From contig JAHFGV010000005.1 in assembly GCA_023247255.1 (NCBI GenBank), positions 6,067 to 70,066 on the forward strand: DNA of 64,000 nucleotides. Direction: 5' to 3'. The number at the start of each line of letters is the position of its first letter. Positions within the stretch are counted from its first letter, which is position 1. The DNA comes from Candidatus Omnitrophota bacterium. GTDB lineage: Bacteria > Omnitrophota > Gorgyraeia > Aquiviventales > Aquiviventaceae. Shown here piece by piece: positions 1,072-53,432 of this stretch. Position numbers and translations under genes: made by a program. The notes under the pieces are model-generated. The model had not been told where the DNA came from. It saw nothing but the letters and a program-made list of their open reading frames with translations, and did no database searches.

Positions 1072-1832
1072 GGCAGCTCAAATCAGGCGTTCCTGTAGAT
1101 TATCGAGGCACGGTTGACCATCCCCGAGTTGCTTCCGACCGTTTGATCGTGGCGTTGGACTCCGCTGATTTGCCATCCGCGCTTGCCATGGCCAGGCGCC
1201 TTAAGGGTATCGTACGGATGGTTAAAATCGGAAGCGTCCTTTTCACCGCTTGTGGGCCTGTGGCGATTCGTAAAATAAAACAGTTGGGCTTCGACGTCAT
1301 GTTGGATTTGAAATTTTTCGATATCCCCTCCACCATCGAGATGAGTTGCCGCGCGGCCGCGCGTCATCGAGTGTCTTTGCTTACGGTGCATGCCACCGGC
1401 CAGCGTCCGATGTTAGAGGCGGCTGTGCGCGGAGCAACCGAGGAGGCTTGGCGTCTTGGCTTGCCTGTTCCAGATGTGCTTGCCGTTACCGTTCTGACCA
1501 GTGTGGGAGAAAACAACCGGCGTTCGATAAGCGCCCAGGTGCTGAGATTGGCTGAGCAAGCAAGACAAGCCCATTGCCCAGGGGTAGTGGCATCCGCACA
1601 GGAAGCGGCGAAGCTTCGCAAGCGTTTTGGCCAGCAGCTGAGGATTCTCTGCCCAGGCATCCGAGCATCCAGCGCTGGAGGGGACGATCAGCACCGGGTG
1701 GCAACACCCAGCCAGGCGCTCTTGGCCGGGGCCGATTGGTTGGTGGTGGGTCGACCCATCACTGCGTCTGTCGATCCGCGTCAGGCTACGAAGCGGATCC
1801 TCAAGGAGATGGAGGCGGCAACGGAATGTTGA
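1062..1832 (+). CDS. pyrF: orotidine 5'-phosphate decarboxylase
   Basis: 256 aa with LIVALD, VKIG, DLKFFDIPST and LTVHA motifs. Overlaps pyrD by 10 nt. Confidence 0.85.
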   Translation: MAVRQLKSGVPVDYRGTVDHPRVASDRLIVALDSADLPSALAMARRLKGIVRMVKIGSVLFTACGPVAIRKIKQLGFDVMLDLKFFDIPSTIEMSCRAAARHRVSLLTVHATGQRPMLEAAVRGATEEAWRLGLPVPDVLAVTVLTSVGENNRRSISAQVLRLAEQARQAHCPGVVASAQEAAKLRKRFGQQLRILCPGIRASSAGGDDQHRVATPSQALLAGADWLVVGRPITASVDPRQATKRILKEMEAATEC

Positions 1833-2422
1833 CACGCGATCAGCTTCTTGCCATCTTTCGCCAGTGCAACGCCCTTCAGCGAGGGCATTTTGAACTCTCT
1901 TCAGGGCTGCATAGTGGGCACTACTTTCAATGCGCGCAGTTTTTGCAACACCCGAAACTAGCTGCTACCGTCTGCCGCGAGCTTGCCCGGCGATTTGTGT
2001 CGCGCAAGCCAACCGTCGTGATCGGTCCGGCGACGGGAGGCATCATCGTGGCGTATGAAGTTGCCCGAGCCCTGAGGGGCAGGGCCCTCTACGCCGAGCG
2101 GGTCGATGCCGAGATGCAATTGCGTCGCGGGTTCACCGTGACGAAGTTGGATCGGGTGCTTTTAGTGGAAGATGTGGTCACAACCGGAGAGTCTGCCCGG
2201 AAGGTGGCGGAGTTGGTAGAGGCTATGGGTGCGAAGGTAGTCGGCATCGGTGCCGTTGTGGATCGCTCCGGCGGCAAGGTTCGTTTCCGAGGCTGTCGTT
2301 ACGAAAAGCTGCTGGAACTGGACTTTGAGCACTTCGGACCGCACGACTGCCCCCTGTGTAACGAGCACATCCCTTTGACCCATCCGGGTCGGCCGAAAAA
2401 AGGCATGTTCCAAGAGAAATAA
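1826..2422 (+). CDS. pyrE: orotate phosphoribosyltransferase
   Basis: ATG 1826 overlaps the pyrF stop (ATGTTGA). GHFELSSGLHS and the PRPP-binding motif LLVEDVVTTGES are present. The track start at 1574 is in-frame read-through over pyrF. Confidence 0.85.
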   Translation: MLTRDQLLAIFRQCNALQRGHFELSSGLHSGHYFQCAQFLQHPKLAATVCRELARRFVSRKPTVVIGPATGGIIVAYEVARALRGRALYAERVDAEMQLRRGFTVTKLDRVLLVEDVVTTGESARKVAELVEAMGAKVVGIGAVVDRSGGKVRFRGCRYEKLLELDFEHFGPHDCPLCNEHIPLTHPGRPKKGMFQEK

Positions 2423-2700
2423 TAATGAGGATTGTGTCCTATTCCAAGAGAAGTAATGAGGATTGTGTCATGTTTCATGAGTCATGTGTCATGAGAGACT
2501 GTTTCATGTGTTATGTGTCATGAAAAAAGCAGAAAATAAACAGGCATCTCAAGCACGGCCAAAGTACGCCTTTTGCTTTCCATGACTCATGACACATAAA
2601 ACATGAAACATGACACAGACGTGAGTACTGGAGCTTAGAACCGTGACTCATGAAACAGACGTGAGCACTGCCACTAACCGCGATGCATTTTGAAAACCCT
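2409..2700. repeat. CATG-rich tandem plus inverted repeat element
   Basis: A ~30-nt tandem duplication spans the pyrE stop (2409-2440 / 2443-2471). A GTCATG-rich arm (2466-2523) is complementary to a CATGAC-rich arm (2579-2627). The terminal 55 nt (2645-2699) recur at 40158-40213. Confidence 0.7.
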
Positions 2701-2719
2701 CAGATCTAAGAGGTTCACC

Positions 2720-3247
2720 ATGCCTCACGAGTCGATCATCCGAGCCACGGTCGGCGTACTCTTAAGCGGCCTGATCCTCACGGCCGCCTTTTGGGTCGTG
2801 GCGTTACGGAATCTTTTTCGCGCCACCCTCAGCTTAGGGCTTGTCTTGGTCGGGGTGGCTTGTGTCTTTCTTTTGCTTGAAGCGGAGTTCTTGGCATTTG
2901 TTCAGATTTTGGTCTATGTGGGTGCGATTCTGACTTTGGTTGTGTTCGCCGTCATGTTAACGGCTCGTCTGCACATCAGCCCCGCCACACGGGTGACTCA
3001 CCGCCAAGATTCCTGGCTCGCGGGTGCGGCAGCCCTAGCCCTGTTTGGATTATTGGTCTGGGCCACGCAATCGTTGACATTTCCCCAGCGCTTGGCCGTG
3101 GAGTCGGTCCGGTTAACCGCTGTGGGCCAGCAATTCATTACGACTCTGATTTTACCCTTTGAGGCGATCTCCCTGATTTTTGTGGCGGCCATGGTAGGTG
3201 CCATTGCTTTGGTGACTCGTCAATTCCCGCCGTCGGCTGAGCCCTAA
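2720..3247 (+). CDS. nuoJ: NADH-quinone oxidoreductase subunit J
   Basis: ATG 2720 follows AAGAGG. Polytopic ND6/NuoJ-like sequence (LLEAEFLAFVQILVYVGAILTLVVF). The track TTG start at 2690 lies inside the repeat. Confidence 0.8.
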   Translation: MPHESIIRATVGVLLSGLILTAAFWVVALRNLFRATLSLGLVLVGVACVFLLLEAEFLAFVQILVYVGAILTLVVFAVMLTARLHISPATRVTHRQDSWLAGAAALALFGLLVWATQSLTFPQRLAVESVRLTAVGQQFITTLILPFEAISLIFVAAMVGAIALVTRQFPPSAEP

Positions 3248-3288
3248 CAGGTTACAGGAAAATGCCCTGTTTGCTCAAAGCTAACAAT

Positions 3289-3549
3289 GGGGGGAACGGG
3301 GTGGGAGACGTGGGGCGTGGGAGAACAGATTACAAGAGATAAAAAGTCCTACAACCGGTTTTAAAAAAGGGTTCTTCTGGTTTTGCAGTGGGTAAAAGGA
3401 GCAACACTTCCCTCTCCCAAAGGGAGAGGGAGAAGGGCATGCCCATATATCCCGGAAGCGCCTAAAAAAGAACGGGCGATGTCTAGCTTTCAAGATTTAT
3501 GGAGTGCTATTCGCACTTCCCTCGCCCCCCGCCCCGTTCCCTTTACCCC
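3289..3549. repeat. GC-rich element, copy K, with G-run/C-run terminal inverted repeats
   Basis: G-arm 3289-3328 (runs G6,G4,G3,G4,G3) and C-arm 3514-3549 are about 21/26 complementary. Internal perfect hairpin CCCTCTCCC-AAA-GGGAGAGGG (3410-3430). Confidence 0.55.
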
Positions 3550-3603
3550 GGATGCGGGTTTTTCAGCAGTCTGCTGATAGCAAGGATATTGAAACGTAAA
3601 CTC

Positions 3604-3903
3604 ATGGAGCTGCGGATTCTACTTTGGTTGTCTTGCGGTTTGTTCTCGATTGGGGTCTACGGGATGCTGACTCGGCGACACGCGATCGGTCTTTTGCTTG
3701 CCCTGGAACTCATGCTCAACGCCGCGGCCTTGAACTTCGTGCTCTTTAGTCGATGGTTCGGCCATGTGCAGGCGCAAGCCTTCGCGCTTTTCATCATCGC
3801 CCTGGCTGCCTGTGAGGCGGTGGTTGGGCTTGCGATTATCATCAGCCTGGCCCGCAGCGCCCACACCGTACTCGTCGATGAAGCGAGCCTCTTAAAAGGA
3901 TGA
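3604..3903 (+). CDS. nuoK: NADH-quinone oxidoreductase subunit K
   Basis: 100 aa from ATG 3604 with ND4L-like LALELMLNAAALNF and AACEAVVGLAII. The stop overlaps the nuoL ATG (ATGA). Confidence 0.85.
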   Translation: MELRILLWLSCGLFSIGVYGMLTRRHAIGLLLALELMLNAAALNFVLFSRWFGHVQAQAFALFIIALAACEAVVGLAIIISLARSAHTVLVDEASLLKG

Positions 3904-5816
3904 AGATGCTTTTGTGGATTCCAGGCCTGCCTTTGTTGGCCGCTGCGATATTGCTGCTCGTTGGCAGACGCTTGGGACGCTGGAGTTCTCATGTGGCGAT
4001 TGCCGCCATGAGTGGTTCGGCGGCGTTGGTCTTCTTGATAGGGAGCTGGATTCTCGATGGTCATCGGTTAGGGGTGCGCTGGATATGGTTGTCCGCGCAA
4101 AAGCCACAGTGGTCGCTGGGTCTGGCCGTCGACGGATTGAGCTGGATCATGCTCGTTGTCGTTACCCTGATCGGTACGATGATTATGGTCTACTCAGTGG
4201 GCTACATGCACGCAGACGCACGGTTCAGTCGGTTTTTCGCCTACCTGTGTCTTTTCTGTGCTTCCATGCTGGGGTTGGTGATGGCCGATCATTTTTTACT
4301 GCTCTATGGCTGCTGGGAGCTCGTCGGGCTGTGTTCCTATTTATTGATCAGCTTCTGGTTTGAAAAGCCGGCTGCAGCCGCCGCGGGCCGGAAGGCTTTT
4401 ATCACGACTCGCATTGGGGATACGGGGCTGTTGCTGGGCATCTTTCTCTTAGCCCTGACGGTTGGCGATCTTCGTCTTCAGAATCTGGAAGTTATCCGTG
4501 CGCAGTTGAGCGAACGTTCCTGGCTCTTGACTCTGATCAGTACATTGATTTTTGTGGGAGCCATGGGCAAGTCCGCGCAAATTCCTCTTCATGTCTGGCT
4601 GCCGGATGCGATGGAGGGTCCGACTGCCGTATCCGCCCTCATCCATGCAGCGACGATGGTAGCGGCCGGGGTGTATCTTGTGGCGCGCAGTTTTGTTTTG
4701 TTCACCCCGCAGAGCCTCCAGGGGGTGTTGATCGTCGGACTGCTTACCCATCTTTTGGCCGGGACCGTCGCCCTGACGATGACCGACATCAAAAAGGTCC
4801 TGGCCTACTCGACCATCAGCCAGTTGGGGTTGATGATGACGGCCCTGGGTCTTGGGGCGCAGGCGGCGGCGATGTTTCACCTGTTCACTCATGCGTTCTT
4901 CAAGGCACTTTTGTTTTTGGCGGCCGGCAGCGTCATCCATGCTACCCATCAACAGGATCTTTCCCAGCTCGGTGGACTCTTCCGAAAGATGCGCGCGACG
5001 GCGATTTTGTTTCTCATCGGCGTTCTGTCGATGAGCGGTTTTCCCTTTCTGAGCGGATTCTGGAGCAAGGATGCAATCTTGGCGGCTGCGTTACACGATG
5101 TGCCGGCGCTCTTCTGGACGTTACTGGCTGGGGCGGTTTTGACAGCGAGTTATACATTCCGGTTGTTTCTGCGGTGCTTTCACGGCGAGTCGGCAGACGC
5201 AAGAGGGCACACAGCACACAGCGTGCATGAATCGCCGGCTATCATGCTTATACCCATGGCGGTCTTGGCTCTTGGAGCGGTCTTCGCCGGTCTTTTAGGA
5301 TCGCCGTGGCTGCATCAGCCGATCTTTCATCTGCTCGGTTCAAAACGCCTGCATGAAGGGATCGATGTGCCGATTTTGCTTTTGTCGAGCGGCGCTGTGG
5401 CTGTCGGATTCGCTCTGGCGTGGCTTTCGGGTTTCAAACGCCAGCTGCACCTGCCTGAATCCTTGCGTCCGTTGGGTCAATTTTTCTATCGGCTTTCGGT
5501 GAACAAATACTATGTGGATGAGGCTTATGACCGCTGGATCGTTCAGCCGTTTCAAGCAGCGACCCGCCGATTGTCCCAGTTTGATCAGCGCGTCATTGAT
5601 GGCAGCGTCAATGGGGTCGCCGAGTTGGGCTGGAAGCTCGGTCAGGGGAAAGAGCGTTTTGACGCCAAGGTTATCGATCGGCTCGTCAACGGCATTGCCA
5701 GTTCCACGCGCCGGATGGCGATGGGGCTTCGGCTGATTCAAACCGGTGTGATTCAAAACTACCTGCTGGCTGTTGTGGTCTCAGTGGTTGTGTTCGCCTG
5801 GCTGTTGCGTCCATAA
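3900..5816 (+). CDS. nuoL: NADH-quinone oxidoreductase subunit L
   Basis: 638 aa with WELVGLCSYLLISFW, TRIGD and GKSAQIPLHVWLPDAMEGPT. Confidence 0.9.
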   Translation: MKMLLWIPGLPLLAAAILLLVGRRLGRWSSHVAIAAMSGSAALVFLIGSWILDGHRLGVRWIWLSAQKPQWSLGLAVDGLSWIMLVVVTLIGTMIMVYSVGYMHADARFSRFFAYLCLFCASMLGLVMADHFLLLYGCWELVGLCSYLLISFWFEKPAAAAAGRKAFITTRIGDTGLLLGIFLLALTVGDLRLQNLEVIRAQLSERSWLLTLISTLIFVGAMGKSAQIPLHVWLPDAMEGPTAVSALIHAATMVAAGVYLVARSFVLFTPQSLQGVLIVGLLTHLLAGTVALTMTDIKKVLAYSTISQLGLMMTALGLGAQAAAMFHLFTHAFFKALLFLAAGSVIHATHQQDLSQLGGLFRKMRATAILFLIGVLSMSGFPFLSGFWSKDAILAAALHDVPALFWTLLAGAVLTASYTFRLFLRCFHGESADARGHTAHSVHESPAIMLIPMAVLALGAVFAGLLGSPWLHQPIFHLLGSKRLHEGIDVPILLLSSGAVAVGFALAWLSGFKRQLHLPESLRPLGQFFYRLSVNKYYVDEAYDRWIVQPFQAATRRLSQFDQRVIDGSVNGVAELGWKLGQGKERFDAKVIDRLVNGIASSTRRMAMGLRLIQTGVIQNYLLAVVVSVVVFAWLLRP

Positions 5817-5826
5817 ATTCCGCAGT

Positions 5827-6325
5827 TTTTAGCAGGATGCTAAAAGACCCACGGGATGCTAGAGTGCCTAACATAATGATCGCATGGTCGCGCTGGGCGT
5901 AATTGCTTCGATGCGCAAGACGCCAGGAGGAAGCCGTACTGATCCATAGAAGTACGGTGACGACGAGCAACGCAGCGCGGCGAAGCAATTCCGCCCAGCC
6001 CTTAGGGTTGCACTGAAAGATGGCCATCTGCTGCGTCGTTCCTCCTCGGCGTAGCGCTCCTTCGGCTACGCCTTCGTCGTCACTCCTTGCATCTGGGCCA
6101 TCTTTCAGTGCAACGCGGCCATGTGCTCATTATGTTAGGCACTCTTAGGCTGCTCAAAAAGGTGCGAGATGCAAGGCGCAGCTCGATTCGGCTGAGTCCT
6201 TTGACTATCGCTCAGGACTCAGCCCTGAGCAACGTCGAAGGGCTGAGGAGGCGCGTACTTTCAAGTACGCTGACGAAGCCGTCAGGCATACAACGCAGCA
6301 GATGTGTCTTTTTCAGCAGCCTGCT
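5827..6325. repeat. multi-hairpin structured spacer (nested inverted repeats)
   Basis: Outer inverted repeat 5861-5893 / 6117-6149, containing an 18-nt perfect core. Inner inverted repeats 5894-5911/5982-5999 (17/18) and 6009-6026/6097-6114 (18/18). Further hairpins lie at 6193-6286. The spacer is bounded by the similar motifs TTTTTAGCAGGATGCT (5827) and TTTTTCAGCAGCCTGCT (6309). Confidence 0.6.
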
Positions 6326-6340
6326 TAGGGAGATGCGCAC

Positions 6341-7792
6341 ATGCTAAGTGTTTTGTTACTGTGTCCACTCATCGGGATGTTGGTGGTCTTGGCCTTGCCC
6401 AAGACAGCCGTGCGGGCCATTCGGTTTGTCGCTTTGCTCGCAAGCGGGCTGGCCTTGGCTTTTGCGATCCAGTTGTTCCAGTTCTTCCGGCCACAAGAGG
6501 CAATCCAGTTAGTCGAGCGGATAGTCTGGATCCCGCAGATGCGCATTTTCTATCACGTCGGTGTGGATGGGCTTAGCCTGCCTCTTGTGTTTTTAACCGT
6601 TCTGTTAGGGTTCATCGCCTGTCTGGCTTCCGCCTCCATCACCGAGCGTCAGAAAGAGTACTACGCCCTGTACCTGCTGTTGGAGATGGGGATGCTGGGC
6701 ACGTTCATGGCATTGGATTTTTTCTTGTTCTATGTCTTCTGGGAAGTGGTGTTGGTGCCGATGTATTTCTTGATCGGCATCTGGGGCGGCGGTCGTCGGG
6801 AATACTCGGCTTTTAAGTTTTTTGTCTACACCCTCGCCGGCAGCCTGGCGATATTGTTGGCCATCTTGATGCTTTATTTCCGCACGGGGACCTTTGATAT
6901 GGTTGCCCTTGCGCAGATGGGACCGTTGCTAGAGCCGGATCTCCAACGACTGCTTTTTGTGGCGTTCTTCTTGGGATTCGCCATCAAGGTTCCGGTTTTT
7001 CCATTCCACACCTGGCTTCCGGATGCGCACGTCGATGCCCCCACCCCGATCAGCGTCCTGTTGGCCGGGGTGTTGCTGAAAATGGGAGGCTACGGCTTTT
7101 TCCGTATCGCCTATCCTATCTGCCCTGAGGGGGCGCAATGGGCAGCAGGGGCGATGGCCGTTTTGGGGATGATCAACATTGTCTACGGCGCTTTCGTTGC
7201 GATGGCCCAGACCGATTTTAAGAAACTCGTCGCCTACTCTTCCGTTTCCCATATGGGATTTGTCCTGCTTGGGCTGGCGAGCCTTCAGACGGAAGGCGTC
7301 AACGGGGCATTGTTGCAGATGTTCAATCACGGCACGATCACCGGTGGCATGTTCTTGTTAGTCGGCGTGCTCTATGATCGGGCGCACACCCGAGACCTCA
7401 ATGCCTTCGGCGGGCTGGGCGCGCACATGCCTAAGTTTTCAGGATTGCTTATTTTTTTCGGGCTGGCTTCTTTAGGGCTTCCGGGTTTGAGTGGATTTGT
7501 GGGGGAATTTTTGTCTCTGCTGGGGGCCTTCGGGGTCTGGCGATGGCAGACGGTCGTCTCAGTGCTAGGAATCGTCGTCGCGGCGGCCTATATCCTCACG
7601 GCGATTCAGCGAGTCTTGCTGGGGCCGCCAAACGAACGCTGGAAAAATCTGCCGGATGTCAATCCGAGAGAGATGGCCAGCTTGATCCCGCTCGTTGTGC
7701 TTATCTTGGCGTTGGGGGTTTATCCTTTGTTATTGATCGATCTTCAGGATGGAGCGGTTCAGCAGTTTATCGCCCACGTCAAAGGACCGTAG
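6341..7792 (+). CDS. nuoM: NADH-quinone oxidoreductase subunit M
   Basis: 483 aa with FAIKVPVFPFHTWLPDAHVDAPT and KMGGYGFFR. Confidence 0.9.
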   Translation: MLSVLLLCPLIGMLVVLALPKTAVRAIRFVALLASGLALAFAIQLFQFFRPQEAIQLVERIVWIPQMRIFYHVGVDGLSLPLVFLTVLLGFIACLASASITERQKEYYALYLLLEMGMLGTFMALDFFLFYVFWEVVLVPMYFLIGIWGGGRREYSAFKFFVYTLAGSLAILLAILMLYFRTGTFDMVALAQMGPLLEPDLQRLLFVAFFLGFAIKVPVFPFHTWLPDAHVDAPTPISVLLAGVLLKMGGYGFFRIAYPICPEGAQWAAGAMAVLGMINIVYGAFVAMAQTDFKKLVAYSSVSHMGFVLLGLASLQTEGVNGALLQMFNHGTITGGMFLLVGVLYDRAHTRDLNAFGGLGAHMPKFSGLLIFFGLASLGLPGLSGFVGEFLSLLGAFGVWRWQTVVSVLGIVVAAAYILTAIQRVLLGPPNERWKNLPDVNPREMASLIPLVVLILALGVYPLLLIDLQDGAVQQFIAHVKGP

Positions 7793-11773: not shown

Positions 11774-11882
11774 ATTGCCGATTTTCGATTTTGGGCTGAG
11801 AGAATTTTCGATTGTAGATTTTAGATTGTCGATTGGAAAACACGACAAATCGACAATCGAAAATTGACAATCGACGATTCGT
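11772..11882. repeat. CGATTGTCGATT-unit palindromic element, copy A
   Basis: Starts at the atpF stop. The arms TAGATTGTCGATT and AATCGACAATCGA are complementary. Related to copy B at 19280-19363. Confidence 0.6.
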
Positions 11883-11940
11883 TGGGCCTTAAGCCAAAAG
11901 CCTTGAGCAAACAGATATTTTCCGTAGCCTGCTAGTACGA

Positions 11941-19139: not shown

Positions 19140-19213
19140 GGGCGGTTAGCTCAGTTGGTTAGAGCGTCTGATTTACATTCAGAAGGTCGGGGGTTCGAGT
19201 CCTCCACCGCCCA
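19140..19213 (+). tRNA. tRNA-Val (anticodon TAC)
   Basis: Cloverleaf folded by hand: acceptor GGGCGGT/ACCGCCC, D-arm GCTC..GAGC, anticodon loop TTTACAT, T-loop TTCGAGT. Confidence 0.9.
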
Positions 19214-19279: not shown

Positions 19280-19363
19280 GGGAATTGTCGATTGACGATT
19301 GTCGATTTTTGATTGAACGGCCGTCTTCCAATCGACAATCCAAAATCGACAATCGAAAATTCC
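19280..19363. repeat. CGATTGTCGATT-unit palindromic element, copy B
   Basis: Ends GGGAATTGTCGATT / AATCGAAAATTCCC are 13/14 complementary. Shares AATCGACAATCGAAAATT with copy A. Confidence 0.6.
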
Positions 19364-23768: not shown

Positions 23769-23842
23769 GGGGGCGTAGCTCAATTGGTTAGAGTGGCGGC
23801 CTGTCGAGCCGTAGGTTGCGGGTTCGAGCCCCGTCGCCCCCG
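23769..23842 (+). tRNA. tRNA-Asp (anticodon GTC)
   Basis: Acceptor GGGGGCG/CGCCCCC, D-arm GCTC..GAGT, anticodon loop CTGTCGA, T-loop TTCGAGC. Confidence 0.9.
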
Positions 23843-53182: not shown

Positions 53183-53347
53183 GGTTCTTTGGGGTGTGAT
53201 CGCGTAGGGTACGTGGTGGGATGACAATTCGAAACGACGCTCCGAGTTCAGCGACCTAAGCTCGCGTGATGGCGGGGATGGTCCCTGAACCCCTGTCCCA
53301 CACGCAACGCCGCGTGTAGGACCGGGCCGGGAAGGAAACGACTCGGC

Positions 53348-53432
53348 CTCCTCGTGTTCGGAAAGGAGACGGCAGGCTGGAGTATCGTCAAGCCAGCTTC
53401 TCTTTCCACACGAGGAGCTGGCTTGTTTCGTC
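53348..53432 (+). promoter_or_regulatory. leader RNA with alternative stems (attenuator or riboswitch candidate)
   Basis: Stem CTCCTCGTGT (53348-57) / ACACGAGGAG (53408-17) competes with the terminator-like stem AAGCCAGCT (53390-98) / AGCTGGCTT (53416-24), which is followed by GTTTCGT. Confidence 0.3.

Follow-up and report, generated by a model that had tools for sequence, protein, structure and literature searches.

Probable nested MITE-like palindromic elements in the nuoL–nuoM spacer of a Candidatus Omnitrophota bacterium

The nuoL–nuoM spacer and its fold

We analysed a 64,000-nt stretch of a Candidatus Omnitrophota contig (JAHFGV010000005.1; this whole stretch is hereafter the window) and focused on the 524-nt spacer between nuoL and nuoM (window 5817–6340), which an earlier note had described as a multi-hairpin region. 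Pfam confirmed both genes, and the NuoL homologues were named NADH-quinone oxidoreductase subunit L of Candidatus Omnitrophica, the nearest non-self match being 68% identical. The gene order pyrD-pyrF-pyrE-nuoJKLMN-atp was common to the window and three relatives (L008, L009 and L010). The spacer was much longer than in L009 (13 nt) and L010 (27 nt), which are relatives at ~65% NuoL identity and not strains. In the L008 spacer (4603–4841, 239 nt), a different hairpin repeat (CCACCCCC...GGGGGTGG) was present twice, indicating that the same junction had been invaded independently. Because the orthologous spacers are short or carry different repeats, the 524-nt spacer is an insertion and not ancestral.

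The spacer contained an outer inverted repeat (5861–5895 / 6111–6145; 35 nt, 89% complementary), whose core (5861–5879 / 6127–6145) was perfect over 19 nt, and within it two long sub-hairpins closed by 5892–5916 / 5975–5999 (25 nt, 88% complementary) and 6007–6025 / 6096–6114 (19/19 complementary). Short perfect hairpins followed at 6190–6200 / 6214–6224 (11/11), 6251–6257 / 6262–6268 and 6269–6274 / 6279–6284, with an additional enclosing pair at 6147–6161 / 6308–6322 (15 nt, 93%). The predicted fold of 5817–6340 on the + strand reached −258.6 kcal/mol, compared with −189.4 ± 7.0 kcal/mol for dinucleotide shuffles (z −9.95; 0/100 as good). Similarly, the − strand folded at −252.7 kcal/mol (z −9.84). 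This was the most extreme fold among the 17 folded intergenic gaps of the window.

The results bore out the claims of the earlier note that the nested repeats are too ordered for chance (z about −10 against shuffles) and that two long sub-hairpins are present. The outer stem proposed there also exists, but its right arm is 6111–6145 and not 6117–6149, and its perfect core is 19 nt. The short 3′ hairpins were likewise found, but instead of standing apart as a series of their own, the last 180 nt form the right half of an outer unit that the Y-shaped structure interrupts. An enclosing pair of this unit (6147–6161 / 6308–6322) had been missed, as had the fact that the 5′ hairpin at 5826–5846 belongs with the 3′ block 6146–6327. 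Copies at other loci, described below, divided the spacer into two units, here called E and Y, and two flanking remnants, with the following features:

3900–5816, + strand: nuoL, stop codon TAA at 5814–5816; Pfam Proton_antipo_N and Proton_antipo_M, E 3.5e-79
5817–5829, + strand: left remnant of the original spacer, ATTCCGCAGTTTT; similarity to the E copy of L011 begins right after it
5830–5831, unstranded: TA left of E, putative target-site duplication with partner 6326–6327; E-type ends elsewhere also begin TAGCAG
5832–5859, + strand: left part of E, terminal repeat GCAGGATGCTAAAAGAC; this part and the T-run before it make up the hairpin 5826–5846 seen in the fold
5860–5861, unstranded: TA left of Y, putative target-site duplication with partner 6146–6147; A5861 can also be counted as the first repeat base
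5861–5891, + strand: left outer arm of Y, tip AGAGTGCCTAACATAATGA; pairs with 6115–6145; 26 nt identical in L012
5892–5999, + strand: arm B of Y, 108 nt; a stem of 25 nt encloses the purine-rich strands AGGAGGAAG / GTGACGACGAGCAACGCAGC and the inner hairpin CCGTACT/AGTACGG
6000–6006, + strand: linker of Y, CCTTAGG, a 2-bp mini-hairpin CC-TTA-GG at the junction
6007–6114, + strand: arm C of Y, 108 nt; a perfect stem of 19 bp encloses pyrimidine-rich strands and the inner hairpin GGCGTAGC/GCTACGCC
6115–6145, + strand: right outer arm of Y, ...TCATTATGTTAGGCACTCT; 30 nt identical in L012
6146–6147, unstranded: TA right of Y; a right TA is present in 6/6 copies with defined ends
6148–6325, + strand: right part of E; arms 6147–6161 / 6308–6322 around several short hairpins, terminal repeat GTCTTTTTCAGCAGCCTGCT
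6326–6327, unstranded: TA right of E, read from the sequence
6328–6340, + strand: right remnant of the original spacer, with the nuoM ribosome-binding site GGGAG at 6328–6332, 8 nt before the ATG
6341–7792, + strand: nuoM; Pfam Proton_antipo_M, E 2e-75; 483 aa vs 485 aa in relatives

Joining 5817–5829, one TA and 6328–6340 rebuilt an original spacer of 28 nt, comparable to the L010 spacer (27 nt). The ribosome-binding site of nuoM is not part of E and is largely unpaired in the predicted fold, and purine-rich sites occupy the equivalent place in the spacers of the relatives. Additionally, a near-identical strain from another sample carried the same spurious open reading frame (ORF; P0122) ~310 nt upstream of nuoM, showing that the composite is real and inherited and not an assembly artefact. 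The orthologous element in that strain had already acquired an indel and several substitutions.

Independent copies of E and Y

We searched the six-frame translation of the spacer against 1.84 billion proteins with HMMER, anticipating that spurious ORFs would have been called on other copies. The search returned 20 matches at E ≤ 1e-3, of which 19 were translated Y cores, mostly short unnamed ORFs; the remaining match was P0121, a ComEC-like protein containing E. A profile search with the Y-core ORFs yielded further matches. The earlier note had offered a nested miniature inverted-repeat transposable element (MITE) as one explanation and proposed looking for copies elsewhere; the results support this option, since each unit recurred alone at unrelated loci, bounded exactly at its inverted-repeat tips and by TA, and the orthologous nuoL–nuoM spacers of relatives measure 13 and 27 nt. 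A genome-contig scan with the perfect 19-nt arm of C gave seven single matches in unrelated taxa, roughly the number expected by chance, and no E or Y match was found in viral contigs or in plasmid or phage collections.

E is a unit of ~208 nt with ends TAGCAGGATGCTAAAAGAC and GTCTTTTTCAGCAGCCTGCTTA of the form TAGCAGG...CCTGCTA, each adjoined by TA. Its copy in L011, from another metagenome, was 91.5% identical to window 6147–6323 over 177 nt (L011 2841–3014) and 87% identical to window 5828–5857 (L011 2807–2836). In L011 the left and right parts were contiguous (GGGATATTCAGGCTGCTC), so that the 5′ hairpin and the 3′ 180-nt block are halves of a single unit, which exists without Y. This copy lies inside P0121 and adds 70 in-frame codons to its metallo-beta-lactamase domain; after removal of these codons, the protein gave one continuous match to Pfam Lactamase_B (profile 2–157) and TIGR00361 (443–663). 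The end consensus TAGCAGNNNGYTGAAAAAC occurred at both ends of E in the window and also in L011, L014 and L015, the overall end pattern of E-type units being TAGCAGNNNGYTGAAAAAC...GTTTTTCARCNNNCTGCTA. In the same L011 contig, a large serine recombinase gene (3–1589) is overlapped at its end by the ComEC-like gene (1580–3421), which lacks the usual N-terminal part; this arrangement suggests an integrated element in comEC.

Y (5861–6145, ~285 nt) is G+C-rich and sits at a TA inside E. Copies without E were found in L012 (721–1011; 74% identical over the whole unit), adjoining a type III polyketide synthase-like gene, and in an intergenic region of L013 (3067–3350; 69% identical). Two further copies, 80% identical, lay on one contig within an S10 ribosomal operon (L016 1096–1385 and L018 2129–2413), one between rplW and rplB and the other exactly at the rplB stop and rpsS start (L016). 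At the latter, the end of Y (GTGAGGAGCTCATAATG) provides a GAGGAG ribosome-binding site for rpsS. In a groundwater metagenome, Y was found between a nucleotidyltransferase gene and a CNNM gene (L019–L021), with the L019 copy appearing shorter.

TA flanked Y on both sides in four copies, with the following junctions: gc-TA-GAGTGCC...GGCACTCT-TA-gg in the window, ct-TA-GAGCTCC...GGAGCT-TA-gg in L012, ct-TA-AGAGTGCC...GGCACTC-TA-gg in L013 and GCT-TA-GAGCTCC...GGAGCTCA-TA-ATGGGG in L016b. For L016b, a functional ancestral junction, in which the rplB stop codon TAA overlaps the rpsS ATG (TAATG), can be restored only if the insertion duplicated the 2-bp TA. Duplication of TA is the signature of IS630/Tc1-mariner transposition, and bacterial MITEs typically have TA at their ends (PMC2229807). 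The evidence for a target-site duplication was weaker for E than for Y, with TA on both sides in the window and a left TA only in L011.

Y cores with a different outer stem also occurred within frames having E-like ends in L014 and L015. Both loci (L015 1–1087 and L014 1–799) are short metagenome contigs that consist almost wholly of nested repeats. L015 contained a pair of Y cores with 97.7% identity and four E-type ends, two left and two right, and looks like one composite inserted in another.

Conservation of the fold and proposed origin of the spacer

We aligned the Y core across seven lineages and obtained 79 consensus pairs, with 92.3% of cells paired. Compensatory double changes occurred in 46 of the 79 pairs, compared with 17.1 ± 3.1 after column shuffling (0/500 shuffles), and slid controls, in which partners were moved by 1–3 columns, gave only 4–12 double-change pairs. 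The covariation that the earlier note had proposed to look for is thus present among copies of Y, but the structure is missing from orthologous nuoL–nuoM spacers. Within the core, a profile of arm B from the six other lineages matched arm B of the window copy at E 7.8e-16, and a B profile built without the window matched 6030–6090 on the minus strand (E 2.7e-5), identifying arm C as an inverted relative of arm B. A Y-core profile matched every copy on both strands, so Y is a quasi-palindrome. The CC/GG pairs of the linker were invariant in the seven lineages, while the linker loop varied; the purine-rich unpaired strands around the inner hairpins were conserved. The pattern AGGAGG..CGTACT..AGTACG..TGACGA, which the earlier note had pointed out in two sub-modules, was present (5950–5963 vs 6263–6276, 93%), but the B profile from other loci failed to detect the 3′ block. 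The similarity of that block to the B module is therefore weak, as is the case for a third copy of the B/C module, although the shared short motif is real.

A very stable predicted structure that covaries across copies would also be expected of a dedicated structured non-coding RNA (ncRNA) or a riboswitch-like regulator of nuoM, the first option raised in the earlier note. The Rfam scan was empty, however, with no match at E ≤ 10 in window 5500–6700 and chance-level matches only in L012, L014 and L015. The structure is absent from the orthologous spacers, and the units occur in unrelated contexts, one of them within a protein-coding frame. Additionally, folding was symmetric between the strands, and across the seven lineages G-U pairs did not significantly exceed A-C combinations (29 vs 22, p 0.40). 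A strand-specific RNA had seemed indicated with four lineages (17 vs 3), and this signal vanished with seven. The lack of wobble bias and the equal fold z of both strands gave no sign of one functional strand. A nuoM-specific RNA is thus largely refuted, and we regard it as highly improbable.

We then considered whether the ORFs of the elements encode small proteins, such as the 68- and 75-aa ORFs that start with MNRS behind AAGGAGG in L016 and L019. Two lineages have a Shine-Dalgarno sequence and an ATG in the B loop, the ORF end coincides with the start of the next gene, and stop codons are few in any frame. However, substitutions were not concentrated at third codon positions, and second positions varied most, a pattern showing that the spacer ORFs are not coding. 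Moreover, stops interrupt that frame in the window copy, matches were obtained in sense and antisense frames alike, and no spacer ORF matched Pfam. That these ORFs encode small proteins is, in our judgement, scarcely credible.

Taken together, the spacer most probably consists of two non-autonomous MITE-like palindromic elements, one nested in the other, inserted in the nuoL–nuoM gap. The units are discrete, small and without coding capacity; they have terminal inverted repeats, a target-site duplication (Y) and filled versus short sites, all of which are features of MITEs. Several observations weigh against this interpretation. Profile and repeat searches found only one Y and one E in the 64-kb window. 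Two of the six Y copies lack a clean left TA (TA two bases away in L018; CA in L019), and the E copy of L011 has the left TA but not the right. The arrangement in L014 and L015 could mean that the composite sometimes moves as one unit. No autonomous element or transposase with matching ends turned up, although no dedicated search was made. Wherever the gene context of a Y copy is known (5/5), Y runs in the direction of the flanking genes, an orientation not required of a purely selfish element; this is suggestive, although the set is small and ORF calls helped to find part of it. Finally, the junction and arms were better conserved across subfamilies than the subterminal outer arms, unlike the usual MITE pattern, which hints that the fold itself matters.

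This conservation pattern bears on a rival explanation, in which the Y core is mobile through its fold and not through its ends. An enzyme specific for structure, either of the HUH/Y1 type (as in REP/RAYT or in derivatives of IS200/IS605) or a recombinase that binds junctions, would recognise the conserved four-way junction in folded single-stranded DNA or in a cruciform. On this view, the TA flanks would indicate a preferred target and not a DDE-type duplication. The junction sequences CGCGC|TGG, CCAGC|CC..GG|GTTGC and GCAAC|GCG were conserved together with both arms, with 46 covarying pairs, whereas the subterminal outer-arm sequence differed wholly between Y subfamilies. Equal folding of both strands is expected of a DNA-level structure, and the L012 and L019 copies lie at the centre of flanking palindromes. 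On the other hand, the tip AGAGYNCC was common to 6 of the 7 Y lineages, the only outer-arm sequence so shared, and between the window and L012 the outer arms were the best conserved part (26–30 nt identical), as for transposase-bound ends. HUH transposition (IS200/IS605) makes no 2-bp target duplication, which the L016 junction needs, and none of the loci fetched showed an HUH gene adjacent to the element. We therefore consider recognition of the fold distinctly unlikely.

More generally, the Y core may be no ordinary junk DNA but a structure-defined module in which the four-way junction itself is the selected unit, an idea we likewise view with considerable doubt. The module could serve as a folded-DNA substrate for a mobilising enzyme that recognises structure, or it could act as RNA and render insertions into essential operons harmless or useful. 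Either way, in uncultivated groundwater bacteria it would be spreading, in sense orientation, to sites in essential operons where one gene stops and the next starts. It would explain the covarying fold with free subterminal arms, the conserved purine-rich unpaired strands and the shared operon orientation.

Returning to nested MITE-like insertion, the order of insertion, the transposase class and any effect on RNA are inferred. The ancestral nuoL–nuoM gap would have been ~28 nt long and would already have carried the nuoM ribosome-binding site. E would have inserted first, at a TA in the gap, and Y next, at a TA inside E, with the outer stem tip AGAGTGCC closing arms B and C joined by CC-NNN-GG. 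Both elements most likely moved by cut-and-paste with TA duplication, by means of an IS630/Tc1-mariner-type transposase acting in trans. The composite would now be transcribed through as a passenger of the nuo operon, with nuoM still translated but presumably no longer close-coupled to nuoL. No terminator-like site (a G+C-rich hairpin followed by a T-run) was found on the + strand within 5817–6340, and the ribosome-binding site lies outside E and is predicted to be unpaired, so nuoM expression can continue. A promoter scan of the spacer gave a single minus-strand consensus match, which was not above chance. In the transcript, the 19–31-bp stems would be double-stranded RNA. By analogy with Correia and ERIC elements (PMC10969869, PMC2229807), they could happen to offer cleavage sites to RNase III or to stabilise the upstream mRNA segment, nuoJKL, at its 3′ end.

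A stronger version of this effect is that the composite has been co-opted as an element of the nuo mRNA, with RNase III sites or 3′ protection giving the nuoJKL and nuoMN segments different levels; a mobile origin would not conflict with this. Co-option would fit the transcription of the composite in sense orientation, with no terminator in the spacer, the long stems and the retention of the insertion in a second strain, and also the operon orientation of all five Y copies, essential ribosomal genes included. Cleavage in transcripts by RNase III or RNase E is known for Correia and ERIC elements (PMC10969869, PMC2229807). However, wobble pairs showed no strand bias, the changes in the other strain look neutral, and relatives manage with spacers of 13–27 nt. 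Co-option is, on balance, rather unlikely.

Nested insertion would account for the eye-catching 500-nt structure without a new RNA gene and guards against annotating it as an ncRNA or as spurious ORFs. E and Y would be MITE-like families that appear not to have been described before, from Omnitrophota-type and other uncultivated bacteria. Insertion at gene junctions within essential operons (complex I, S10) is tolerated by these families and may even be preferred, and one of them can sit in frame within a protein. A strongly covarying four-way fold is unusual for a MITE and offers a tractable case for studying how the structure of selfish palindromic DNA is maintained. Metagenome assemblies also break at such repeats, which makes known ends of practical use.

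The window contained further repeats. In the nuoJ–nuoK spacer (358 nt; repeat region 3246–3577), where relatives have the two genes abutting, E-like ends (TA-ACAGGTTACAGGAAAATGCCC ... GGTTTTTCAGCAGTCTGCTGA-TA) surround G-run/C-run arms (3292–3322 / 3511–3541). This spacer is probably a second E-type frame with different cargo; the E profile did not detect it. The pyrE–nuoJ spacer (2452–2629; 20–34 nt in relatives) contained a palindrome of CATGACA/TGTCATG-type repeats, for which either strand gave a fold z of about −6. Imperfect palindromes made of ATCGACAATCGA-type repeats occupied two intergenic blocks, 11783–11899 and 19284–19360, the latter just downstream of a tRNA (19140–19213); a second tRNA lies at 23769–23842. 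Inside pyrD (dihydroorotate dehydrogenase; 76–1071), a G-run followed by a C-run (480–556; Gly-rich, then Pro-rich codons) forms a 31-nt inverted repeat that divides the Pfam match in two, and the resulting loop of ~25 residues is also present in L009 and L010 and is therefore old. A molybdenum cofactor riboswitch (Rfam RF01055, 61.6 bits) was found at 53228–53385.

Comparison with known palindromic elements

E and Y resemble the Correia/NEMIS elements of Neisseria and the RUP elements of Streptococcus pneumoniae in being small, non-coding and intergenic, with terminal inverted repeats and TA at their ends, in being co-transcribed with their neighbours and in inserting into other mobile elements. 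E and Y are not known to share any recognisable sequence similarity with the Correia or RUP consensus. Unlike them, Y is larger (~285 nt) and G+C-rich, with an internal four-way junction carrying two long covarying arms, and no IHF site or promoter was detected in the nuoL–nuoM spacer. IS630-Spn1 is the presumed mobiliser of RUP, and RNase III cleaves the RNA of Correia elements (PMC2229807, PMC10969869).

Rickettsia palindromic elements (RPE) insert in frame into protein genes without destroying them (PMC10969869). The E copy in the L011 ComEC, and that copy only, behaves likewise, preserving the frame over 70 codons. In contrast to RPE, this is one in-frame case, the window copy is intergenic, and the sequence and host phylum are unrelated.

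The enterobacterial REP/BIME and ERIC elements are, like E and Y, transcribed intergenic palindromes within operons. They can alter mRNA stability, and BIMEs are mosaics of inverted copies. REPs measure 20–40 nt, have a GTAG motif and are linked to RAYT transposases, and ERIC elements are ~127 nt long. The architecture of Y and its nesting at a TA differ from these, the units described here measure 108–285 nt and have different ends from REP/BIME, and no RAYT-like gene was found beside any copy in the loci fetched. A search of the literature on the end sequences, and on Omnitrophota together with MITEs, found nothing useful.

The nearest published architecture to the B-linker-C core of Y is that of CIR, in which two long arms are joined by a linker and the secondary structure is phylogenetically conserved (PMC2229807). 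CIR elements differ from Y in being alphaproteobacterial and in being defined by a GANTC methylation motif in the loop; we found no evidence of a GANTC-type motif at a conserved position in Y. Conversely, Y has an extra closing outer stem and TA flanks. E and Y thus appear to form an undescribed family of a known kind.

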